DNA from: a virus
Lineage: Duplodnaviria > Heunggongvirae > Uroviricota > Caudoviricetes
DNA length: 64,000 nt
IMG/VR virus record: IMGVR_UViG_2639762884_000001
Direction: 5' to 3' (one strand)
In this document: one piece after another, positions 3,094 through 61,644 of the stretch
Layout: each line of letters begins with the position of its first letter
Position numbering within the stretch: the stretch's first letter is position 1
Position numbers and translations under genes: made by a program
Notes under the pieces: model-generated
What the model was told of the DNA's origin: nothing
Seen by the model: the letters and a program-made list of their open reading frames with translations, nothing else
Databases searched by the model: none

Positions 3094-3250
3094 CCCGTCT
3101 CCTTTATTTTAATTTGCGCAATTGTCGCCTTGTAGTGTACTCCAGCTACGACATTTAATCATTTATGAGAAATGCTGTTATCACATGGCAGACATAAGGC
3201 CATTTTGTTACTATCAAGCCCCTTTTCACTACAAAGAAGTAATGCCTACT

Positions 3251-5284
3251 ATGACCCAAGTCGCGAAGAAAATTCTGGTGACGTGCGCGCTGCCGTACGC
3301 TAACGGCTCAATCCACCTCGGCCATATGCTGGAGCACATCCAGGCTGATGTCTGGGTTCGTTACCAGCGAATGCGCGGCCACGAGGTTAATTTCATCTGT
3401 GCCGACGATGCCCACGGCACACCGATCATGCTGAAAGCACAGCAGCTTGGTATCACACCGGAACAGATGATTGGCGAAATGAGTCAGGAACACCAGACTG
3501 ATTTTGCAGGCTTTAACATCAGCTATGACAACTATCACTCGACGCACAGCGAAGAGAACCGTCAGTTGTCCGAGCTTATCTATACTCGCCTGAAAGAGAA
3601 CGGTTTTATTAAAAACCGCACCATCTCTCAGCTGTACGATCCGGAAAAAGGCATGTTCCTGCCGGACCGTTTTGTGAAAGGCACCTGCCCGAAATGTAAA
3701 GCACCGGATCAATACGGCGATAACTGTGAAGTCTGCGGCGCTACTTACAGCCCGACTGAACTGATCGAGCCGAAATCGGTAGTTTCTGGTGCTACGCCGG
3801 TAATGCGTGATTCCGAACACTTCTTCTTTGATCTGCCTTCTTTCAGCGAAATGTTGCAGGCATGGACCCGCAGCGGTGCGTTGCAGGAGCAGGTGGCAAA
3901 CAAAATGCAGGAGTGGTTTGAATCTGGCCTGCAACAGTGGGATATCTCCCGCGATGCGCCGTACTTCGGTTTTGAAATTCCGAACGCACCGGGCAAATAT
4001 TTCTACGTCTGGCTGGACGCGCCGATTGGCTACATGGGTTCCTTCAAGAATCTGTGCGACAAACGCGGCGACACTACCAGCTTCGACGAATACTGGAAGA
4101 AAGACTCCACCGCCGAGCTGTACCACTTCATCGGTAAAGATATCGTTTACTTCCACAGCCTGTTCTGGCCTGCCATGCTGGAAGGCAGCAATTTCCGCAA
4201 GCCGACCAACCTGTTTGTTCATGGCTATGTGACGGTGAACGGTGCGAAGATGTCCAAGTCTCGCGGCACCTTTATTAAAGCCAGCACCTGGCTGAATCAT
4301 TTTGACGCTGACAGCCTGCGTTACTACTACACTGCGAAACTCTCTTCGCGCATTGATGATATCGATCTCAACCTGGAGGATTTCGTTCAGCGCGTGAATG
4401 CCGATATCGTGAACAAAGTGGTTAACCTGGCCTCCCGTAATGCAGGCTTTATCAACAAGCGTTTTGACGGCGTGCTGGCAAGCGAACTGGCTGACCCGCA
4501 ACTGTACAAAACCTTTACTGATGCTGCTGAAGTGATTGGTGAAGCATGGGAAAGCCGCGAATTTGGTAAAGCGATTCGTGAAATCATGGCGCTGGCTGAT
4601 CTGGCTAACCGCTATGTCGATGAACAGGCTCCGTGGGTGGTGGCGAAGCAGGAAGGGCGCGATGCCGATCTGCAGGCGATTTGCTCTATGGGCATTAACC
4701 TGTTCCGCGTGCTGATGACGTACCTGAAACCGGTACTGCCGAAACTGACTGAACGTGCAGAAGCATTCCTGAATACAGAACTGACCTGGGATGGTATCCA
4801 GCAACCGCTGCTGGGCCATAAAGTGAATCCGTTCAAGGCACTGTATAACCGCATCGACATGAAGCAGGTTGAAGCACTGGTGGAAGCATCCAAAGAGGAA
4901 GTAAAAGCCGCTGCCGCGCCAGTAACTGGCCCACTGGCAGATGATCCGATTCAGGAAACCATCACCTTTGACGACTTCGCCAAAGTTGACCTGCGCGTGG
5001 CTCTGATTGAAAACGCGGAGTTTGTCGAAGGTTCTGACAAACTGCTTCGCCTGACGCTGGATCTCGGTGGCGAAAAACGTAATGTCTTCTCCGGCATTCG
5101 TTCCGCTTATCCAGATCCACAGGCACTGATTGGTCGTCACACCATTATGGTGGCCAACCTGGCTCCGCGTAAAATGCGCTTCGGTATCTCCGAAGGCATG
5201 GTGATGGCTGCTGGCCCCGGCGGGAAAGATATCTTCCTGTTAAGCCCGGATGCTGGTGCTAAACCAGGCCACCAGGTTAAGTAA
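3251..5284 (+). CDS. metG: methionine--tRNA ligase
   Basis: 677-aa product starting [26 protein letters not shown] (HIGH motif), KMSKS present, C-terminal tRNA-binding domain; near-identical to E. coli MetG as recalled. The track ORF start at 3122 is an upstream in-frame extension. Confidence 0.97.
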
Positions 5285-5445: not shown

Positions 5446-5745
5446 ATGTTGAACATTACCCAAGCCTACCAGGTGGCATTGATCAGCTCATCTCATACAT
5501 CAGAGGAAGATGCTCGCCGATTCATGATCGCAAGCAATGAGCTGGATTGGGTTTCACAAATTGAGTACGGTTGCATTGTCCACGCCGGGTTACAGGACGA
5601 TGACTGGAAAGATGAGTTGCGTCGATATGGTATATCCGAGGGCGCGATTGCGAACATTCAGAAAGTACTTGATGTAGGCTTTGACTCTGTACATTTTGAT
5701 TGTGGCGCACCGGTCGTTGAAGGGCTTGAGTGCTGGCAATGGTAA
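5446..5745 (+). CDS. hypothetical protein (99 aa)
   Basis: ORF with GGAG RBS; class A palindrome at 5418-5433 immediately upstream. Confidence 0.5.
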   Translation: MLNITQAYQVALISSSHTSEEDARRFMIASNELDWVSQIEYGCIVHAGLQDDDWKDELRRYGISEGAIANIQKVLDVGFDSVHFDCGAPVVEGLECWQW

Positions 5746-5781
5746 TCCGGCAATCGCTTCATACTAGATAACGGAGAATTT

Positions 5782-5967
5782 ATGCTTAAAGAAGACTCAT
5801 ATCTACTAAAGGCGCTTGAAATGCGTGGCGTTGAACCTACAGTGAAAAACGCCCACGATATCTACCTTCAGTTTTCACCGGAGCTGAAACGGCTCATAAA
5901 TCAATACGGGGTTAATGACTCAAGTGTTAAAGCGATGATAGATGATGAATTAGACCATCTTATCTAA
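5782..5967 (+). CDS. hypothetical protein (61 aa)
   Basis: ORF with ACGGAG RBS spaced 7 nt from ATG. Confidence 0.45.
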   Translation: MLKEDSYLLKALEMRGVEPTVKNAHDIYLQFSPELKRLINQYGVNDSSVKAMIDDELDHLI

Positions 5968-6119
5968 TCGTTATCCTATGATAATGGTTTCACTTTGAGA
6001 TTGTTATTTTTCATAGCCAAAGCTGATGTTTGTGGAAGGTGGATTGATAAACGGATGCGTATTTAGGTTATACAAGTGAGAAAATTGATAATATATAAAC
6101 GCGATTTTTATGTGATGGA

Positions 6120-6689
6120 ATGGATGTGATGGAAACCCAGAACCAACAAACAAAACCTCTGAATAACATTTATGCGTGGATTCTAGCGTTCATGCCTTTC
6201 TTCTTTGGAGTATTGCCGGAAGAGTATACCAATTACGCTATTATAATTGGGGGTGTAACTACCATCGGTTTGTTAGTAGCTGACAGAATGGCTCTATCGG
6301 AGTCTGGCTGTGAACCACCTTCAATTCTATGGGGGGTATTCCTCCTGCCTGTCTATCTCTGGAAGCGCGCGACTATTACAAAAGGCAGCAGAGTGCCATT
6401 TATCATAATCGTTGCGTCGCTGGCTTGGATTATCTTCATCGGCATCCCACACAAGGACGAGGTTGCTCTTGAAGAAGCAGCCTGCCCTCTCGTGACAACT
6501 ATTCTGAAAGAGAATAACGGTTCGACTGCACCAAAATGTATGAAGGTGACAATAGAGGACAAGGTGACGGATAAGTTCTATAGAGCAACGGCTACACTAG
6601 ACAATGGTAATGACATTAACATTACTCTGGAACTTACCGGTGACAGGAACTTCTACGTCCGTGTTCCAAATGTTTATCTGAACAACTAA
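6120..6689 (+). CDS. hypothetical membrane protein (189 aa)
   Basis: Several hydrophobic helices (AWILAFMPFFFGVL, IIIGGVTTIGLLV, WGVFLLPVYLW, FIIIVASLAWIIFIGI). Confidence 0.5.
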   Translation: MDVMETQNQQTKPLNNIYAWILAFMPFFFGVLPEEYTNYAIIIGGVTTIGLLVADRMALSESGCEPPSILWGVFLLPVYLWKRATITKGSRVPFIIIVASLAWIIFIGIPHKDEVALEEAACPLVTTILKENNGSTAPKCMKVTIEDKVTDKFYRATATLDNGNDINITLELTGDRNFYVRVPNVYLNN

Positions 6690-7079
6690 CGGTTGCAACT
6701 TATTGATAATGGCGGTCACAATTTGATTCTTTTCTATAAGAATCCGTTGATCGCCACTACTCCCCTTCCATACCTGCAATCATACCCTTAAATATCAATA
6801 GGTTATGGTTGTTTATACAAATAAGAAAACAACTAAATAACAGATCAACGAAACGTCAACGCTTTCACCCGATTTGGTCTAAAAAATTGATGTTTTCACA
6901 CATCACTTCTTATACCCGTAACTCTACGCAGCAGACAGCGCCACAGCGTCCAATTTTCACCACAGACGACTCAACACACCACCAACAAAAACACACGCTC
7001 AAAATCGCTCCCGTTGCGTTACATAACCATATAAACAACTTATTTTCAGGCATAACAAAACAACTAAATAACACACATG

Positions 7080-7200
7080 CCATTCCCCAAAACAACCAAC
7101 CTCTTTATGGCAGGCTACCGAAAAGACCCACCTCTTCTTCCCAGGCTACCGGACAACCAACCTAACTTTCACAGGCAATCCGAAAACATTCATACGCGCG
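7080..7200. repeat. C/A-rich direct repeats (CAGGCTACCG... units), first copy
   Basis: Units starting 7111, 7143, 7175 (caggctaccgaaaagacccacct / caggctaccggacaaccaacct / caggcaatccgaaaacattc) within a roughly 650-nt tract (about 6900-7560) almost devoid of G and T on the plus strand. Confidence 0.7.
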
Positions 7201-7757
7201 ATACCCACGATACGCCATTCCCCAAATAGCGAAGCACACCAGAATCACTGAAACCCCCAACGAAGCCTGTAACCGCAAGGTTTCTCTCAATCCCAAAAGA
7301 CACGAAACATAACAATCACGGGAAATGCCATTACCCAATACACGAATAACTACAAAAGCCTTTCACACACTCCAGACAAACAACTCAAACACAACAACGA
7401 AAGGAATCGCCCACCTGCCATTACTCCATACACAGAGAAGAACAATCACCAAAACGACGAGAACACCCCATAGAAGAACCACCGCAAAACTAACGAAACC
7501 ACATACACCGACAGAGAAAACAACACACCCAATTCACCAACAGAAATAGTCGCCGTATAGAACGTTCTGGAAGGAGTGAGCATTAACGCCTATAGAGAGG
7601 TTGAAACAGATAAAACACGAAGAAAACACAACATGTATAGCGAAGAAGCCAGGTATGTATAAGTGGGGGGGGAAGGAGGGGTGTCGCCTCCTTTTTCGTA
7701 TTTATTCAACTCCTGATTTTATCCCCCGTAACACCCCTACGGTCAGCCTCCGGTCCA

Positions 7758-7897
7758 TAAGGGAAAAGGCTGCATCCCGCTACAGAAACGGCTGGATTGC
7801 CTTCGGGGAACGGCTGGAGGTTTTCAGAGAAACGGTCGAGTTGCCTGTGTGAATTTCGGGAAAAGGTTCGATGCCGGTTCAGGAACGGCGGCGTACC
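7758..7897. repeat. iteron-like direct repeats (RGRAAMGGCTG), cluster 1
   Basis: Six copies: gggaaaaggctg 7761, agaaacggctg 7785, gggaacggctg 7806, agaaacggtcg 7827, gggaaaaggttcg 7858, aggaacggcgg 7881; spacing about 21-31 bp. Confidence 0.7.
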
Positions 7898-8231
7898 GGT
7901 ATAGCGTGAGGGAGAGTTGCGGCTGCCCACCTGTAATGTGCGGGAAGAAGAGAGGCGCTCACGTGCAGGCGGACTAACTTACCGCTGGATTCCCTCTGAA
8001 TGCCCAGCTACAGCGTAATTGTGCCAGACAGCCAACGGGTCACAATCGATTTCAGTAGGTTTTCGGGGAGATGATTATTCTGCCCACCAGCCACCTTAGG
8101 CCACTAAATCAGAATAATGTAAAAAGTGTACTCGGTACTGAACCTGAAAACTCACTGCCAAAACCACATTCACCGGAATAAAATCCTTTTTCGCCTGTGC
8201 GTTATTGCGATAATAACACCATCAAGAAAAC

Positions 8232-8582
8232 ATGTTGTTTAAGGATTGCTTTATGTTTGCAAATATCGACATCAACCAAATCAAGAAATTAACTCAAAAA
8301 GAGTTTGATCAGTTTTATGAGTTAGAAGGTTGGTCTTCCACTCTGATCAATTCGCGGTGGGTGCTTGAGCTGATGACTCGTGATGACGCACCTGCTTTGA
8401 TGATTTGCGACATGGGTGAAGATGCTGACTTTATGGATATGAGCGAATTTTGTGTGGACACATACAACCGCAGCCAGAAGTACTACTTCACATGCGATAG
8501 CGAAAATGACGTGATTTCTAAGGTCTATCTTCACCTTGTCCAGCATTGGGACGTTCAGGAGTTTCTTGAGGTATTCGCGTAA
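8232..8582 (+). CDS. hypothetical protein (116 aa; alternative start 8253 with AAGGA RBS)
   Basis: ORF; acidic Cys-containing product; hairpin 8593-8611 downstream. Confidence 0.5.
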   Translation: MLFKDCFMFANIDINQIKKLTQKEFDQFYELEGWSSTLINSRWVLELMTRDDAPALMICDMGEDADFMDMSEFCVDTYNRSQKYYFTCDSENDVISKVYLHLVQHWDVQEFLEVFA

Positions 8583-8735
8583 TCCCAACCAAAGCCAGCA
8601 TTGCTGGCTTAATTTCTCTATAGCCGCAGGGAGGAACCTGCATATCGATCATGCACCTGATCATTATGCTTTGTAGCCGTTTTCTTACTGGTATTATTTA
8701 CGCCATTGAGAAAACAAGTTGTTTACGGAGTTGTG

Positions 8736-9047
8736 ATGAAAAAATCATTGGTTCTTGGTCTGGACAAAGACCAGAAGAGAAAAGAGAAGCCTGCACTGGT
8801 TGCTCAATTAACTTTGCTAGACATCGTTGCCAATGGAACTTCTATTCGTCTGTTCCGTGAAACAGCGGTGTCTTTCGATAAAAACACCTTTACTCGTTAT
8901 GTAATGAATGTTCGTCGCCAGCGTGGAAAAGGATGGGTGGCATTTCAAAGAATGTGGCCGGAACATCAGCTCGAACTGGCCTTGATGGAAGTTAACCGCG
9001 TGGCCCAGCAAGAAATTCAGAGAGCATCAGTGATGGCAATAGCCTGA
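8736..9047 (+). CDS. hypothetical protein (103 aa)
   Basis: ATG at 8736 preceded by GGAG; class A palindrome 8711-8724 directly upstream. The track ORF starts at an upstream TTG. Confidence 0.5.
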   Translation: MKKSLVLGLDKDQKRKEKPALVAQLTLLDIVANGTSIRLFRETAVSFDKNTFTRYVMNVRRQRGKGWVAFQRMWPEHQLELALMEVNRVAQQEIQRASVMAIA

Positions 9048-9082
9048 TAATGTGCAAGTGGTAATTAGTCGACAGTACGACA

Positions 9083-9110
9083 GCCCCGCCATCCTTACGG
9101 GGCTTTTTTG
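9083..9110 (+). terminator. Rho-independent terminator
   Basis: GCCCCG...CGGGGC stem followed by TTTTTT. Confidence 0.8.
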
Positions 9111-9173
9111 TATTGTAAGTACATACTTATGATCATAGAATATAAAAATAACCAATACACTACGGAGAGTGAA

Positions 9174-9569
9174 ATGACCGTTAAACGCGAAAAACTGACA
9201 GTTGATGTTTACTATGCCTCTGAAACCGCCGAAGGTAAGAATGTGGCAAAAATCACCGTTGTTACGTACAACACCGAAACTGGTGCCGAAGTCCAGGCCA
9301 GTACGATCGTGCGTAAAGGTGATGCCTCCGGCGGCGAGTACGCGACTCAATACCAGTCCATTCTCGATGCAACTGACCCGCTGCTGCTGAAAATCGAGAA
9401 CTACTTCCGCCAGGTTGATGAAGAGGTGTTTGAAACCATGATGAATATGGTTAACACCGTATTCGCCTCCAGCCTGAACACCAGCACCACCTGGATTGGC
9501 CAGTACGGTCTGCGCATTACCTCTGGCATTCCTGCCGACACCTTAATCCCTGAAAGCGTATTCGCTTAA
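9174..9569 (+). CDS. hypothetical protein (131 aa)
   Basis: ATG at 9174 with GGAGAG RBS; terminator downstream. Confidence 0.5.
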   Translation: MTVKREKLTVDVYYASETAEGKNVAKITVVTYNTETGAEVQASTIVRKGDASGGEYATQYQSILDATDPLLLKIENYFRQVDEEVFETMMNMVNTVFASSLNTSTTWIGQYGLRITSGIPADTLIPESVFA

Positions 9570-13260: not shown

Positions 13261-13863
13261 TCAAAAAGGCAAAATTCGTTCAACCCAATCGAACAAAACA
13301 ACTATTTTTCTACCGTTCTCGACACGTAGTGTAACCTGACAAGCATCTGCGCCTGCTGACACCCCCTCAATTTCACGGCCATCCGCCATGTACACCCTTA
13401 TAGATTTGTTTGCTTTATAGGCTTGGTTGCAAATTGCAAAAAAATCGCGGCGTGATGGCCGATTATCGACATAATCAGGGTGAACTGTTAATCGACCTTT
13501 GAAATCGTGAGCGATACTGTCAACCACACCTGATTCAATTGTACTAATGCGTTCAAGTGGGAGCCTTATACGATTTTCTTTGTCAAAAGGGGCTGGGCAA
13601 AGGTCAACTTTGTTGCGAGATGGCATGAGGCCATAAACGTACATGCAAAACGCCTGACCATCTTCGAGAGTGACCCTTACAGGAATTTGTTCTCTGCGCC
13701 AGAACATCAGTAGTTTTTCAACGTTAGTGTAATCTCGCGGCAAGAGTTCAGCTTGGATACCGTAGGTAATATCTTTGGTTGTCATGTCATCACAGAGTTG
13801 TTGGCAGAATGTCGATGTCACCAGAATTGCTGGTGAACACCCTGAACGCTTTTGTGTCTCCAT
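13261..13863 (-). CDS. hypothetical protein (200 aa)
   Basis: ORF; no motif recognised. Confidence 0.5.
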   Translation of the reverse strand: METQKRSGCSPAILVTSTFCQQLCDDMTTKDITYGIQAELLPRDYTNVEKLLMFWRREQIPVRVTLEDGQAFCMYVYGLMPSRNKVDLCPAPFDKENRIRLPLERISTIESGVVDSIAHDFKGRLTVHPDYVDNRPSRRDFFAICNQAYKANKSIRVYMADGREIEGVSAGADACQVTLRVENGRKIVVLFDWVERILPF

Positions 13864-41942: not shown

Positions 41943-44900
41943 ATGTGGTACAGGGAAGGTACTATCACATTTACACAGGGTAGCAATACTCTGGTTGGGG
42001 CAGGGACAGCCTGGAACGTAACAGCTAATGGTGTGTTGCCGGGGATGATCGTCATTGGCCCCGACAATAAGCTGTATGAGATCAAGCGCGTAATAAGCGA
42101 TACGAATATTGTTCTCTCAGAACCTTATACCGGCGAAACTCAGTCTGAGGTTCCGTGCCGAATCATTACGACCTATGAAGGCGACTTAACACAGTTTAGC
42201 GCGCGCTTTACTGCGCTAATGTCGCGTATGTCGGCTGATTCCAAGTCCATGCGCAGTTGGTTGACTGCGCTGGATGAGGTGACAATCGAGCGTGAAGACG
42301 GTACAGAAGTGACCGTTAAGCCGCTGATACAGATTGTCAACGAGCACAACGAAAACGTTGAGTGGTATAAAAATAACACCGACGCGATTGACGCTGCTGG
42401 CGACAAAGCTCGTGAGGCGGCGGCCAGTGCTGCCGCAGCAGCAGAAAGCGCCAATACCGCTGGAGAAAAAGCCTCTCAAGCGTCTCAAAGTGCATCCGCT
42501 GCAGAGTCCTCAAAAAGCGCGGCGGCCACCAGTGCCGGTGCCGCGAAAACGTCTGAAACGAATGCTGCAGCGTCACAAAAATCTGCAGCCACTTCTGCAT
42601 CCACCGCGACCACGAAGGCGTCAGAAGCTGCCACCTCAGCCCGGGATGCGGCGGCCTCAAAAGAGGCAGCGAAATCATCAGAAACGAGCGCAGCCTCGAG
42701 CGCCAGTAATGCCGCTTCCTCGGCAACGGCGGCAGGAAATTCCGCGAAGGCGGCAAAAACGTCCGAGACGAACGCCAGGTCTTCTGAAACGGCAGCGGGA
42801 CAGAGCGCCTCAGCTGCGGCAGGCTCAAAAACAGCGGCTGCATCATCTGCCAGTGCCGCGTCAACAAGTGCCGGGCAGGCCTCAGCCAGTGCCACCGCCG
42901 CCGGAAAATCGGCAGAAAGCGCCGCATCATCCGCTTCAACAGCCACAACGAAGGCTGGCGAAGCCACTGAACAGGCCAGCGCAGCAGCGAGGTCAGCTTC
43001 CGCAGCGAAGACATCCGAAACGAACGCGAAAGCGTCGGAAACCCGTGCAGAATCCTCAAAAACGGCAGCCGCATCGTCCGCCAGTTCGGCAGCGTCATCG
43101 GCATCATCTGCGTCTGCTTCAAAAGATGAGGCGACCAGACAGGCGTCAGCAGCGAAGGGCAGCGCCACGACGGCATCCACGAAAGCAACAGAGGCGGCAG
43201 GCAGTGCGACGGCAGCATCTCAGAGCAAAACTGCTGCTGAATCCGCTGCGACCCGTGCGGAAGCTGCTGCTGATCGTGCTGAAGAGATTGCCGGTGCAGT
43301 TGCGATGGAAGACGCAAGCCTTACAACTAAAGGTGTTGTGAAACTTAGCAGTGCTGTCGATAGCACCAGTGAATCGCTGGCCGCAACGCCAAAAGCAGTT
43401 AAGGCCGCATATGATAATGCTGAAAAAAGACTACAGAAGGATCAGAATGGTGCTGATATCCCAGACAAGGGCCGCTTCCTGAGTAACATTAATGTTTACA
43501 GCAAAGGTGAAGTGGATAAGAAAAAGGGGATGCGAAAATACACTTTCTCTGCTCCTGCAAATGCAGTAAGCGGTAAGTGGTATCCTGTAGTCTTTCGCCG
43601 AACTGGTGGTGGCACAGATGAATTAGCCTCACGAGTGGTTATCACCACTTATTCCTCAGCTGGCGGATACGCTATGAATAATTGTGAGTTTAATGGTTTT
43701 GTTATGCCGGGCGGTTGGTCTGATCGCGGTTCATATGCTGTTGGTTTTTTCTCAATATATTCAACCGTTGAACGATCTATACACTCGATTATCGCAAGCG
43801 TGAAAGATGATGATTTGTGTAGTGTATTTTACGTTGAGACAAGAGCATTCCCTATCCAGATTTTTGCTGAGGAAGGATTAAATGTGATTGTTCCAACGGC
43901 TGATTATGCAGTTGGTCAAACCACTTATAAGTGGGGGGCCACTGATCCTTTATCAGAAAGTACGAATGCACAGATAATTTTGGACTTTAAAAATGGACGA
44001 GGTTATTACTGTTCACATCCATTTATTTCAAGTCTTTCAGGAAATGCTGCTACAGCAACGAAATTACAGACGGCAAGATCTATCGGTGGAGTTGGTTTCG
44101 ACGGTTCTGCCAATATTAATCTTCCAGGTGTAAACACTACGGGTAATCAGAACACCACTGGTAATGCCGCAACTGCTACAAAACTACAGACGGCAAGAAC
44201 TATCGGCGGCGTGAGCTTTGATGGTACTGCAAATATTAATTTGCCAGGTGTTAATACGACTGGTAATCAGAATACAACAGGTAATGCGGCTACTGCTACG
44301 AAGTTGCAGACTGCGCGTACTATTAATGGGGTGTCGTTTGACGGTTCGGCAAATATTTCCTTGTCACCAGCAAATATAGGTTGCCCAGCATCTCCTACTG
44401 GTTGGTTAACTACAGGAAGTAATGGCGGAGCAATAACAACAGCCCAGTTAGTGACGTTATTGCAAAATAATGGAGCCTTTAACACAAAGGCATGGATTGC
44501 TCGATGTGCGTGGGCCTATGCCAATAGCGCAACCATACCAAATAGTGAAACTGGTTGTGGCGTTATTCCATTGGCAGGAGCTGTTATAGAAGTATTTAAT
44601 AACGGTAGTAGTTCAAATAATTATACGATCCGCATAACAACGGCCACAACGACAAGTGTTTCCGGTGCTCTCACTAATGCGGAGTTTATCTATGTATTTA
44701 ATGGCACAGATTATTCTCCAGGATGGCGAAGAGTATATAACACGAAAAACAAACCAACAGCCTCTGATGTCGGTGCATTACCTCTTACCGGTGGTACATT
44801 ATCTGGAGGTTTGACATCTTCTGGCGAGATCATTTCAAAATATGCAAATGGTTTCCGCATTGCTTACGGTAGCTTTGGGTTCTTTATCCGTAATGATGGA

Positions 44901-61086: not shown

Positions 61087-61161
61087 GATGGTGTAGCTCA
61101 GCGGTAGAGCAGTTGGCTGTTAACCAACTGGTCGGTGGTTCGAATCCACCCACCATCGCCA
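61087..61161 (+). tRNA. tRNA-Asn (anticodon GUU)
   Basis: Acceptor GATGGTG/CACCATC, D-arm TAGCTCAGCGGTAGAGCA, anticodon arm GTTGG-CTGTTAA-CCAAC, T-arm GGTGGTTCGAATCCACC; genomically encoded CCA. Confidence 0.85.
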
Positions 61162-61166
61162 ATTTA

Positions 61167-61253
61167 GGAGAGTTAGTCCGTAGAGGTAGCGGGGTAGACT
61201 GTAAATCTACTGTCATTGCGACTCGGGTGGTTCGACTCCATCACTCCCCACCA
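61167..61253 (+). tRNA. tRNA-Tyr-like (anticodon GUA), class II
   Basis: Anticodon arm GTAGA-CTGTAAA-TCTAC, T-loop TTCGACT, variable arm; acceptor stem has one mismatch; ends in CCA. Confidence 0.55.
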
Positions 61254-61257
61254 AATT

Positions 61258-61333
61258 GCCGGTTTAGCTCAGTTGGTAGAGCGCCTGCCTTGTAAGCAGG
61301 ATGTCAGCGGTTCGAGTCCGTTAACCGGCACCA
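61258..61333 (+). tRNA. tRNA-Thr (anticodon UGU)
   Basis: Acceptor GCCGGTT/AACCGGC, D-arm GCTCAGTTGGTAGAGC, anticodon arm CCTGC-CTTGTAA-GCAGG, T-loop TTCGAGT; CCA. Confidence 0.8.
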
Positions 61334-61557
61334 ATACAACGATAAGATCATTACGGTTAATCGTCGTTCATGTGCACAATGACTGGTCGAAAGGTAGTGA
61401 TCTTACCGTTGTGGTGGATTCGCAGACTGATGCGATAGCTTTCTTGGATGTTAGGGAAATGCGGCCGCAAATCTTCCCTTTCGCGAGCGGTGATCGTCCG
61501 TAGTCCTAATTGGCTGCACCGTATGCCGGAGATTCAGTACCGGCTATCACAACGGCC

Positions 61558-61644
61558 GGAGAGTAGGGAGCATGGTGCTCAAGCGGTCTTGAAAACCGTC
61601 CCATTGCGCAAGCGATGATGGTTCGATTCCATTACTCTCCGCCA
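61558..61644 (+). tRNA. tRNA-Ser-like (anticodon UGA), class II
   Basis: Acceptor GGAGAGT/ACTCTCC, anticodon arm GCGGT-CTTGAAA-ACCGT, long variable arm, T-loop TTCGATT; CCA; D-arm atypical. Confidence 0.55.

Follow-up and report, generated by a model that had tools for sequence, protein, structure and literature searches.

Phages are known to counter Rho with proteins, such as Psu, N and Q, and RNA sponges are known for other regulators: CsrB and RsmZ for CsrA, with GGA presented in the CsrB hairpins, and CrcZ for Hfq/Crc. Prophages supply anti-GcvB RNAs (PMC4104026), and mRNA leaders are bound by FljA proteins (PMC4122451, PMC2652032). In Rho-dependent termination, the C>G bubble, counted when uninterrupted, at least 78 nt long and on the non-template strand (PMC6144790), has been related to outcome in vitro, where all templates tested with bubbles >78 bp or >700 %.bp elicited Rho termination (Nadiras et al. 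2018, PMC6144790). The same study found %C, %CA, %AC, %CAC, %ACA, %AAC, %CAA and low folding energy to be positive descriptors, and G-rich motifs to be negative ones (PMC6144790).

Clinical E. coli, Klebsiella, Enterobacter and Salmonella often harbour phage-plasmids of the SSU5/pHCM2 type, which are able to carry resistance genes; the regulation of these elements is almost unstudied. The window analysed here, the whole 64-kb stretch of DNA, is an element of this type with 97 % identity to phage Cyrano (pLF82). Our evidence points to a conserved plus-strand RNA-level module in it that has the properties of an extreme Rho-loading site and is framed by a conserved hairpin, a promoter/leader module of the early-gene type and a terminator. 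A search of the SSU5/pHCM2 literature for a described element or transcript matching this tract found none, and the region bears no annotated feature in RefSeq records.

Results

An A+C-rich tract kept across SSU5/pHCM2-type elements

On the plus strand, positions 6900–7560 (661 nt, GC content 0.452) are made up of A 0.395, C 0.333, G 0.120 and T 0.153. The resulting A+C fraction of 0.728 (72.8 %; z = 9.3 versus the rest of the 64 kb) compares with a background of mean 0.497 and sd 0.025 across the window, where it elsewhere never exceeds 0.599. The bias is evenly spread along the 650 nt of the tract; the top 20 C+A-rich 200-nt windows all fall within 7191–7391 and, among 500-nt windows, 7001–7500 has a GC skew of −0.46 and an AT skew of +0.44, the extremes of the 64 kb. 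This base-skew computation, which the original prediction had called for, upholds the C+A bias that it assigned to 6780–7560 but moves its start: 6780–6900 is merely ~0.56–0.64 C+A, and strong skew begins at ~6900 and stops at ~7560. The flanks are as it described, a membrane-protein ORF (6120–6689) before and 22-bp iteron-like repeats (7761–7890) after, and the G-rich run that it noted at 7661–7690 proves real, forming the 5′ arm of a hairpin with a T run behind it. Its idea of a purine/pyrimidine-asymmetric DNA element finds no support, purines amounting to 51 % (0.514) and the bias being instead of the amino/keto type, A+C versus G+T. The elements of the locus are as follows.

6710–6756, plus strand: two-step hairpin just past the stop of the variable upstream gene, −19.1 kcal/mol
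6814–6842, plus strand: head module, −10-like TATACA at 6814–6819 and then AGAAAACAA at 6824–6832
6855–6916, plus strand: invariant block with inverted repeat GTCAAC (6855–6860)/ATTGAT (6886–6891; GTTGAC in relatives)
6900–7560, plus strand: A+C tract with conserved skew, noncoding by the six-frame test, unstructured on the plus strand by folding, and core of the C>G bubble
7033–7073, plus strand: palindrome AAACAACTTATTT at 7033–7045 (AAACAAnTTGTTT in relatives) and second copy of AAAACAACTAAATAACA
7079–7428, plus strand: four same-orientation GCCATT(A/C)C(C/T)C(C/A)A units, starting at 7079, 7214, 7327 and 7417
7087–7178, plus strand: three tandem 31-nt repeats, ACCnACCTCTT-N5-CAGGCTACC-GAAAAG, core invariant across lineages
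7669–7706, plus strand: hairpin and U-rich tail, an intrinsic terminator closing the module (GAAGGAGG...CCUCCUUU)
7761–7890, unstranded: five to six iteron-like GRAACGG repeats with 22-bp spacing, conserved in all lineages including pVH1-2-1
8201–8255, plus strand: promoter/leader of the first downstream early gene, palindrome GTTATTGCGATAATAAC holding the extended −10 TGCGATAAT

Comparison with related genomes, also called for in the original prediction, revealed the same skew in 17 diverged lineages and, together with the full architecture, in pVH1-2-1, whose sequence is essentially unalignable (small islands of similarity in BLAST). The tract is carried by >800 plasmid records, is kept in nearly all relatives at a nearly constant length across genera (629–750 nt), and is among the most conserved noncoding features of the SSU5/pHCM2 family. 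Its primary-sequence identity of 0.61–0.69 equals the level of neighbouring genes, with four-fold sites far lower (0.30–0.45), which indicates, as judged from the alignment, that its sequence is under purifying selection. In the lineage alignment G columns vary mostly to A and T columns mostly to C, with G-to-C and T-to-A changes also frequent; G/T columns are neither more conserved nor clustered, and a pattern of A/C filler between conserved G/U islands was accordingly rejected. Relatives differ in the genes upstream of the tract, yet in each case these lie on the plus strand and stop right ahead of the invariant hairpin. Partial tract copies in large Klebsiella plasmids are IS-truncated fragments whose context is uninformative.

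Coding capacity of the tract

Open frames occur on both strands, and depositors have annotated ORFs in the tract, which could then encode low-complexity plus-strand Thr/Pro/His/Gln/Asn/Lys proteins (CYRAN_103 in Cyrano) or, from minus-strand ORFs of 31–61 aa, very hydrophobic mini-proteins of Val/Gly/Leu/Phe/Cys/Trp; most relatives keep some minus-strand frames open, and in the 3′ half a number of indels have lengths divisible by 3. Long open frames are, however, expected here by chance because stop codons are rare by composition. The synonymous fraction in the tract is 0.15–0.37 over all six frames, versus 0.75 for the true frame of a control gene nearby, whose wrong frames give 0.08–0.13. 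No 3-periodicity was detected in the tract, each frame has stops in some lineage, and no tract ORF conserved in position and frame across relatives was found; the 661 nt contain 3 ATG and 1 SD-like tetramer. PGAP made no call over the tract in any RefSeq relative, and expression in lysogens is zero. The six-frame test, negative in every frame of the tract and positive in the control gene, rules out the hydrophobic ORFs and the multiple-of-3 indels as signs of coding. A protein-coding reading is thus strongly disfavoured by sequence comparison, in line with the original prediction, and we regard it as highly improbable.

RNA folding, flanking hairpins and terminator

The plus-strand transcript, if made, would be unusually unstructured, as had been predicted: its MFE per nt is −0.115 versus a background of −0.293 ± 0.037, with 70 % versus 39 % of bases unpaired. 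No conserved RNA fold was found in the tract core on either strand (SCI ≤ 0.26, consensus folding energy ~0), and an Rfam covariance-model search of 5500–9500 on both strands gave no match up to E = 1. Inverted repeats had suggested that the tract pairs at long range with the G-rich/iteron RNA beyond it; such pairing is marginal here and absent in 4 other lineages, and the idea was discarded.

The hairpin at 6710–6756 has an outer stem UGGCGGUCA/UGAUCGCCA and an inner stem GAUUCUU/AAGAAUC, its loop lying inside the conserved UUUCUAUAAG, and yields an Alifold z of −4.8 (plus strand) versus −2.5 (minus strand). Its inner stem covaries around the unchanged loop, being GGAUUU:GAGUCC with U.G wobbles in SSU5 types, GAGU:ACUC in Klebsiella and CCUCUC:GAGAGG in pVH1-2-1, and only plus-strand RNA can form the wobble pairs. 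We propose that this hairpin is the stable 3′ end of upstream transcripts. At the other end, the hairpin at 7669–7697 (eleven pairs, −16.7 kcal/mol, followed by UUUUUCGUAUUUAUU) qualifies as an intrinsic terminator; its stem is kept in relatives with both arms changed, for example GGAUGGAG/CUCCAUUU in Klebsiella, and the U tract is weaker in SSU5 types.

Head module, promoter-like boxes and repeats

The head module is a member of the promoter/leader family that precedes the early genes of the phage-plasmid (at least 7 genes). Here it has no ORF behind it, its palindrome lacks the right half and its −10 box is degenerate. The block is invariant in the lineage alignment, and orthologous copies stand at the tract start in SSU5, Kp4727, Sal2014K and pVH1-2-1, the last with the full palindrome; the module is, at the sequence level, a candidate transcription start of a tract RNA. 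In the family member at 8201–8255 the −10 is followed by AGAAAACAT-GTTGTTT, an SD (AAGGA) and the ATG at 8253, and the region is 87 % identical to that in pVH1-2-1. The PHROG alignment of this first downstream early gene begins at residue 8 of the listed ORF.

The block at 6855–6916 is nearly invariant in 10–17 lineages (Alifold z = −4.5, plus strand), and in pVH1-2-1 both arms of its inverted repeat have changed together (GTCAAA/TTTGAC). The repeat overlaps a promoter-like TTGATG (6887–6892)-N18-TATACC (6911–6916), in which the conserved final T of the −10 is missing, and the promoter scan made no call. Possible roles of the block are a second promoter, a group of operators or, in RNA, a 5′ hairpin.

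Within the tract, 7052–7073 duplicates 6821–6842 as a 22-nt direct repeat. GCCATT(A/C)C(C/T)C(C/A)A has six matches in the 64 kb, four of them in the tract, versus 1.8 expected; the units are degenerate, irregularly spaced (41–287 nt) and present in up to 9 copies in SSU5-type relatives. Tandem Repeats Finder reported no array in the tract itself, its sole match nearby being a 16-nt, 2.2-copy repeat at 6819–6853, in the head module.

Rho-related descriptors and lysogen expression

A single uninterrupted C>G bubble spans 6673–7601 (15,758 %.bp; mean %C−%G 18.5, maximum 31). It is ~4 times the next largest on the plus strand, 2.6 times the largest on either strand, and >20 times the size that always gave Rho termination in vitro. 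CA, AC, CAC, ACA, AAC and CAA in the tract all exceed the window maximum, and GG, GGG, TGG and GGT are near zero. YC dimers, at 92, are also at the top of the window (background mean 61, maximum 91), and the longest YC chain with 9–13 nt spacing is not enriched (4 versus a background mean of 4.8). Over the minus strand there is no C>G (maximum %C−%G = 0). The plus strand combines three attributes of a rut region, namely a bubble, little RNA structure and no translation signature.

In strand-resolved RNA-seq of LF82 (GEO GSE154648), the upstream CYRAN_102 had a normalized count of ~57 in LB and log2(FPKM+5) up to 9.2 under other conditions. CYRAN_103, which corresponds to the 5′ half of the tract, was at FPKM 0 in LB and near floor in all 10 samples, and CYRAN_105, downstream of the tract, was expressed independently.

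Searches for specific sponge or array functions

Each specific sponge function that we tested for failed. The duplex with GcvB R1 (−28.1 kcal/mol) is the same as in dinucleotide shuffles (−27.8 ± 2.1 kcal/mol) and is therefore due to composition alone. Tract counts of ARN runs, as expected of an Hfq sponge, and of CACAaCAY equal those of dinucleotide shuffles, and AANAANAA, as in an Hfq/Crc sponge of the CrcZ type, occurs 2 times versus 2.25 ± 1.8 in shuffles. For CsrA, there are 3 GGA versus 3.8 expected here, with P > 0.05 in 15 of 17 lineages; the AUACACGGAGAAG units of SSU5 types, which had prompted this idea, are absent in the 64-kb window. A mimic of the fliC leader acting as FljA decoy was sought with the fliC 5′ leader as query, and the best local match, ACCCAATAC, was not significant, with P(null ≥ observed) of 0.04–0.8 across 17 lineages. 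A type III toxin–antitoxin array was likewise rejected, the units being degenerate and irregular and the next gene, of a PHROG without assigned function, lying 530 nt away past the iterons.

Discussion

Our favoured but tentative reading, which we hold to be quite possible, is that the tract is a one-way Rho-dependent transcription barrier or insulator acting in cis; we infer both that Rho acts at the tract and that insulation is the function selected. Selection would keep G and T almost absent from the sense strand. The tract RNA, C-rich and G-poor over ~650–900 nt and devoid of a ribosome-binding site or reading frame, would be a Rho-loading substrate, unable to fold because A does not pair with C. 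The variable cargo genes upstream are expressed in lysogeny; plus-strand transcription entering from them, or starting at the head of the module itself, would be halted before the 22-bp iterons and the repressed early operon, with the intrinsic terminator at 7669–7706 backing up the barrier. Trimming would then shorten the released, unstructured RNA as far as the invariant hairpin at 6710–6756, so that no steady-state signal would be left over the tract. The barrier would be directional because minus-strand transcripts are G-rich and would be immune to Rho.

Some of the data do not sit easily with a Rho barrier. A rut site needs ~80 nt, yet 650–750 nt are kept at near-constant length, and a function of composition only does not require an identity above that of four-fold sites; the GCCATT units, the 31-mers and the early-type head module suggest a purposeful transcript or factor binding. 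Length, primary-sequence conservation and repeated motifs are left unexplained by the Rho model, which suggests an additional sequence-specific factor that reads the RNA or the DNA. The drop in LF82 RNA-seq, moreover, could stem from the hairpin alone or from repression.

Several of these features would find a place in a trans-acting early (lytic-phase) noncoding RNA of ~0.85 kb, running from its own early promoter to the terminator at ~7700 and serving as a structure-free scaffold or decoy, which we consider somewhat unlikely. Rho itself is one possible partner; others are a further host factor that binds single-stranded RNA, small RNAs rich in GU, or a protein of the phage, for instance the FljA-family RNA-binding repressor whose gene (13261–13863) lies 5.7 kb away. 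The repeats would be the binding sites. The tract head shares the module of at least seven early genes in all lineages and a dedicated conserved terminator is present, yet the head −10 is degenerate and the other promoter-like box is without its key final T. Sequence-level purifying selection and 4 to 9 variable-copy units are typical of sponge RNAs, and in absolute terms the tract could pair strongly with the GcvB seed (−28 kcal/mol), although no sponge test succeeded. Silence in lysogens fits a repressed early gene; no transcript was observed, CYRAN_103 being near floor in the LF82 lysogen, and such an RNA would itself meet Rho termination unless protected. The FljA-family protein (PF03614, E = 1.7e-82) is core even in non-flagellate Klebsiella (341 plasmids), and 12 of 12 tract-bearing phage records also carry its gene, but this co-occurrence shows only that both are core, and pMT1 has the gene without the tract. 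In a sharper form, to which we give a rather low probability, the tract would be an ORF-less early gene whose abundant A+C RNA, made on induction or infection, is a trans decoy for Rho or for the FljA-family repressor: it may be an RNA-based anti-Rho sink, or it may be a multi-site sponge that, once made, titrates off a repressor keeping early mRNAs with the AGAAAACAA-N-UUGUUU leader silent during lysogeny.

At the DNA level, the tract might act in cis with the iterons as part of a lytic origin, as a centromere-like or titration array, or as a strand-specific ssDNA loading zone, with the GCCATT units and the 31-bp repeats (three helical turns) as protein-binding sites. We think this improbable. 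A duplex binding array gives no reason for an even A+C bias along one strand, and the wobble-dependent covariation of the hairpin and the terminator indicate plus-strand RNA, even if the tract directly adjoins the conserved 22-bp iterons and its repeats, all in one orientation, are helically phased and vary in copy number. The 1.5-kb gene-free region, silent in lysogens, is typical of origins and the phage-plasmid has genes for a helicase, primase, ligase and Pol III alpha of its own, but its replication genes are ~40 kb away. With 45 % GC the tract is not an AT-rich unwinding element, and since pMT1 replicates as a plasmid without the tract, it is not the plasmid origin; it may have a role in lytic replication. 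It is also most unlikely that the skew is a functionless by-product of strand-asymmetric mutation, such as deamination of an often single-stranded minus strand. G+T enrichment of one strand is a classic signature of single-strand deamination and the prevailing column changes, G to A and T to C, agree with it; the frequent G-to-C and T-to-A changes, the identity well above that of four-fold sites, the sharp boundaries coinciding with conserved elements, a z of 9.3 unique in the window, and the retention both of the architecture in the otherwise unalignable pVH1-2-1 and of the tract in nearly all of the >800 relatives all speak against it.

If the Rho insulator proves true, it would show how exchangeable cargo genes are expressed beside lethal lytic functions and would provide a compact, directional, sequence-defined terminator part, whereas a trans-acting structure-free RNA would add a new class to the regulatory or decoy RNAs of phages. 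The promoter/leader family, together with the FljA-like protein, offers a first handle on the early regulon of SSU5/pHCM2-type elements.

Comparison with known systems

Like iteron-type origins, the locus is gene-free, with direct repeats beside 22-bp iterons; unlike their unwinding element, which is short and AT-rich, the tract is 650 nt long, 45 % GC and strand-biased. With CsrB/RsmZ and CrcZ it shares the traits of a noncoding RNA candidate having a variable number of short units, a promoter and a terminator, but its units (GCCAUUAC...) match no known binding motif and no hairpins present GGA. It resembles AgvB and SroC, the sponges of GcvB (PMC4104026, PMC4474525), in being CA-rich and able to pair with the GU-rich GcvB seed and, as with AgvB, in being phage-borne. 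AgvB and SroC, however, are short Hfq-binding RNAs that each have a single specific target-mimic site and are made in lysogens; the tract is silent there, and its conserved motifs show no complementarity to GcvB. Compared with Rho-dependent terminators and rut sites, such as rutA–rutB of lambda tR1, the tract is ~10 times longer than needed, is conserved in length and sequence across genera, and has repeated units, an early-type head module and an intrinsic terminator of its own. Like them, it is untranslated, unstructured, and C-rich and G-poor on the transcribed strand, is enriched in CA-type motifs and depleted of G-rich ones, would be directional, and is placed after a gene end and ahead of elements to be kept silent.

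Composition and anatomy of the tract

On the plus strand, window positions 6900–7560 have base fractions of A 0.395, C 0.333, G 0.120 and T 0.153, with an A+C content of 0.728 compared to 0.497 ± 0.025 (maximum 0.599) in equal-sized windows elsewhere (z = 9.3). The top 20 C+A-rich 200-nt windows of the entire 64 kb all lie within this tract. Windowed composition hence upholds the C+A strand bias of the original prediction, but of the extent proposed, 6780–7560, the skew stands and the start does not, strong skew setting in only near 6900. The suggestion of a purine/pyrimidine-asymmetric element fails: purines make up 51 %, and the bias is amino/keto (A+C versus G+T). The G-rich run noted at 7661–7690 is indeed present and forms the 5' side of a plus-strand hairpin, after which comes a U run. 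The tract and its surrounding elements are:

6710–6756, plus strand: two-step hairpin directly 3' of the upstream gene's stop codon
6814–6832, plus strand: head module, a -10-like box and AGAAAACAA, member of a promoter/leader family
6855–6916, plus strand: invariant block whose inverted repeat covaries, GTCAAC/GTTGAC (GTCAAA/TTTGAC in pVH1-2-1)
6900–7560, plus strand: A+C tract, defined by composition
7033–7073, plus strand: palindrome and second AAAACAAC copy, within the tract
7079, 7214, 7327 and 7417, plus strand: four GCCATT units (up to nine in relatives)
7087–7178, plus strand: three tandem 31-mers, within the tract
7669–7706, plus strand: intrinsic terminator, the G-rich hairpin and U run
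7761–7890: five to six GRAACGG iteron-like repeats at 22-bp spacing
8201–8255, plus strand: promoter/leader module of the next gene, early-gene family

The loop of the hairpin at 6710–6756, UUUCUAUAAG, is invariant across relatives and the inner stem covaries (GAUUCUU:AAGAAUC, GGAUUU:GAGUCC, GAGU:ACUC, CCUCUC:GAGAGG); in the SSU5 type this stem depends on U·G wobbles, so that pairing occurs on plus-strand RNA only. The gene abutting the hairpin varies, encoding a membrane protein here (6120–6689, plus strand) and a coiled-coil protein in the close relative Cyrano (an Escherichia phage, also plasmid pLF82 of strain LF82), with a GIY-YIG nuclease gene plus a 519-nt gene in the same slot in other relatives and a 1.2-kb gene in SSU5. 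These differences mark the upstream slot as a cargo-exchange hotspot with the hairpin as its right-hand boundary. The block at 6855–6916 overlaps a promoter-like TTGAYG-N18-TATACC, whose -10 is without the critical last T.

The iterons have no initiator gene nearby and are kept in all lineages, including the very distant pVH1-2-1, but are missing from the Yersinia pestis relative pMT1; they could indicate a lytic origin or else some other protein-binding array. Directly downstream, at 8084–8091, CCACCAGC on the plus strand is a minus-strand Chi site.

Distribution and conservation

The region 6700–7760 is 94–98 % identical to Escherichia phages Cyrano, CMS-2020a and PhiR41_1 and to ~190 E. coli plasmids, and 60–80 % identical to >800 plasmids (Klebsiella, Escherichia, Enterobacter, Salmonella, Citrobacter, Cronobacter) and Salmonella phage SSU5, matches that identify the window as a piece of an SSU5/pHCM2-type phage-plasmid. 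By the Cyrano annotation, the tract is located among small plus-strand genes ~13 kb upstream of the terminase, with parA and the genes for helicase, primase and Pol III all far away.

In Y. pestis pMT1/pFra (NZ_CP151620.1, 16910–35503), a gene for an FljA-like protein and several neighbours are kept, and the tract, iterons and adjacent small genes are lost beside an IS1541 insertion; no skewed region occurs within 18.6 kb around the locus. Yersinia is missing from the ten genera named in the organism tally of the tract search, where at most one Yersinia record is possible, in contrast to the 62 Yersinia plasmids matched by a neighbouring gene. Their loss in pMT1 shows that the tract and iterons are neither the origin nor the partition site of the plasmid; they are part of phage-type functions.

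Just the opening ~450 nt of the region, comprising hairpin, head module and tract start, occur in two large non-phage Klebsiella plasmids (190–266 kb), pBckp186 and K. oxytoca strain 45 unnamed1. The fragment adjoins DUF262/restriction-modification genes in both; it is flanked by IS903B and IS3-family transposase genes in pBckp186, and no IS is annotated beside it in the K. oxytoca plasmid. These partial copies look like leftovers from recombination with phage-plasmids.

Elsewhere, the window encodes a complete methionyl-tRNA synthetase (3122–5284, plus strand; PF09334, E = 5e-166, plus tRNA-binding and anticodon-binding domains) and four clustered tRNAs (61087–61644, plus strand; Asn-GTT, Tyr-GTA, Thr-TGT, Ser-TGA), of which the Cyrano annotation has only three (Asn, Thr, Ser). 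A 120-nt tandem repeat at 44038–44357 (2.3–2.7 copies, 76–78 % identity) probably sits inside a tail-fibre gene.

Annotated records and an invariant-anchor scan of public viral and genome contigs yielded 62 distinct tract copies, forming 17 clusters at 95 % identity. The skew is kept in every one of these lineages (A 0.34–0.40, C 0.29–0.34, G 0.12–0.19, T 0.14–0.18 over 629–700 nt). Compared with the SSU5 and Klebsiella types, the window's tract is 0.61–0.69 identical, against a random expectation of ~0.31 at such composition; neighbouring genes are 0.61–0.64 identical overall but only 0.30–0.45 at four-fold degenerate sites. These values show purifying selection on the primary sequence of the tract, beyond composition. 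G/T columns are unclustered and no better conserved than A/C columns, and those that vary change mostly to A or C; pressure for A+C operates over the full tract length. In pVH1-2-1, BLAST similarity is limited to short islands, and the syntenic 1.5-kb gene-free region holds a 750-nt tract of 64–73 % C+A, bordered by the same elements in an unchanged order.

Coding test

Short ORFs are open on both strands of the tract, as expected since stop codons are rare at such composition. None is conserved in position and frame across relatives on either strand, 3-periodicity is absent from all six frames, and in none of the relatives does RefSeq annotate a feature in the region. Counted over single-nucleotide codon differences, synonymous changes made up a fraction of 0.15–0.37 in all six frames, compared to 0.75 in the true frame and 0.08–0.13 in wrong frames of an adjacent control gene (8736–9047). 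Coding was hence rejected, in agreement with the noncoding assignment made originally, and the depositor-called ORFs CYRAN_103 and SSU5_108 are best regarded as spurious.

RNA properties and expression

Plus-strand tract RNA is the least foldable in the window (MFE/nt -0.115 versus -0.293 ± 0.037), with 70 % of bases predicted unpaired versus 39 % in the background, which bears out the earlier expectation of an unstructured RNA if transcribed. No conserved structure was found in the tract core on either strand, and no Rfam family matches the tract. Candidate activities rejected were an Hfq and CrcZ-type motif sponge, a CsrA GGA-motif sponge, fliC-leader mimicry, long-range pairing with the downstream G-rich region, and GcvB-seed pairing, which was strong in absolute terms yet the same as in shuffles.

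A single unbroken C>G bubble (a stretch where %C exceeds %G, a descriptor of sites used by the host termination factor Rho) spans 6673–7601 with an area of 15,758 %.bp. Of the templates assayed in vitro, all with a bubble >78 bp or >700 %.bp gave Rho-dependent termination, for which %C, %CA, %AC, %CAC, %ACA, %AAC, %CAA and weak folding are positive descriptors (Nadiras et al., PMC6144790). In the tract, each of these equals or exceeds the window maximum, and values for the negative, G-rich descriptors lie close to zero. YC dimers are more numerous than anywhere else in the window; regularly spaced YC chains are not enriched. The minus strand of the tract has no C>G at all, and any Rho effect would therefore be one-way.

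Strand-resolved RNA-seq of LF82, which carries Cyrano, is available per gene as log2(FPKM+5) (PMC9928086, S1 Table). CYRAN_103 (window ~6809–7165, plus strand) has an FPKM of 0 in LB and is near the floor in all ten samples (PMC9928086). Directly upstream, CYRAN_102 is a 'moron' expressed in lysogeny; its normalized count is ~57 in LB, and its log2(FPKM+5) climbs to as much as 9.2 in other conditions. Therefore, in the plasmid state no plus-strand RNA accumulates over the tract, though transcription reaches its upstream edge. Downstream, CYRAN_105 reaches log2 values up to ~7.5, independent of the tract.

An early promoter/leader family and an FljA-like protein

The palindrome AAACAA-N-TTGTTT (AAACAAnTTGTTT) has 26 strand-matches in the window versus 3.4 expected. 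It belongs to a module of consensus [TGC]GATAAT or CTAATT, ACACC-N4-AGAAAACAA-N-TTGTTT, then SD and ATG, which precedes at least seven early genes (5417, 8225, 8709, 10376, 19492/19520, 49083 and 52319, all plus strand), with further copies in the tract region at 6824 and 7052. It is retained at the starts of orthologous genes in each lineage examined (SSU5, Klebsiella, Salmonella, pVH1-2-1), and in every lineage one copy, in pVH1-2-1 with the full palindrome, stands at the tract head with no ORF behind. At the first early gene downstream, the extended -10 is overlapped by a perfect palindrome, GTTATTGCGATAATAAC, which occurs once in the window (8201–8217) and is 87 % conserved in pVH1-2-1. 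By sequence, the modules resemble a set of operators and extended -10 elements serving an early regulon from dispersed sites, which recalls the C1 operators scattered over P1.

A full-length FljA-family ORF ('repressor of phase-1 flagellin'; PF03614, E = 1.7e-82) lies at 13261–13863 on the minus strand, with a weak Hfq-like match at residues 146–188, and is annotated merely as 'transcriptional regulator'. FljA binds the fliC mRNA leader and blocks fliC translation (PMC4122451, PMC2652032). Among SSU5-type phage-plasmids the FljA-like gene is core, with 341 Klebsiella and 62 Y. pestis plasmids carrying it; it is present in 12 of 12 phage records carrying the tract and is expressed in LF82 lysogens. 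Klebsiella and Y. pestis hosts lack flagella. As the product of a core gene expressed in lysogens and kept in such hosts, the FljA-like protein is likely to target an RNA of the element itself, with AGAAAACAA-N-UUGUUU leaders or tract RNA as candidates.

Possible roles of the tract

Because A and C do not pair, the composition suggests selection for structure-free RNA. That G and U are kept out evenly and strand-wide is difficult to reconcile with a duplex-DNA protein-binding array, as are the wobble-dependent hairpin, the early-type head module and the terminator; all four are natural for a plus-strand RNA-level element. A DNA-level role together with the iterons is improbable. To our knowledge, Rho is the one well-established machine in enterobacteria that specifically reads untranslated, unstructured, C-rich, G-poor RNA. 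We tentatively prefer, while rating it short of probable, a one-directional barrier to transcription that would depend on Rho, have the intrinsic terminator at 7669–7706 in reserve and insulate the iterons and early operon. It would shield these, the operon being repressed, from read-through out of the lysogeny-expressed, freely exchanged cargo slot, and the invariant hairpin would be the 3' end remaining after exonucleolytic trimming.

Such a barrier leaves the 650–750-nt length, sequence conservation and repeats unexplained, and a trans-acting early noncoding RNA (scaffold or decoy), although rather unlikely, is for that reason still a serious rival. We give very little credence to a protein-coding tract, given the negative six-frame test, and just as little to pure mutational bias as the source of the skew; the remaining probability falls to something else. 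No description of this element was found in the accessible literature. Should the tract be a Rho barrier, it would extend a known kind by a modular variant of unusual size and with a conserved sequence; should it be a structure-free RNA acting in trans, the kind itself would be new.
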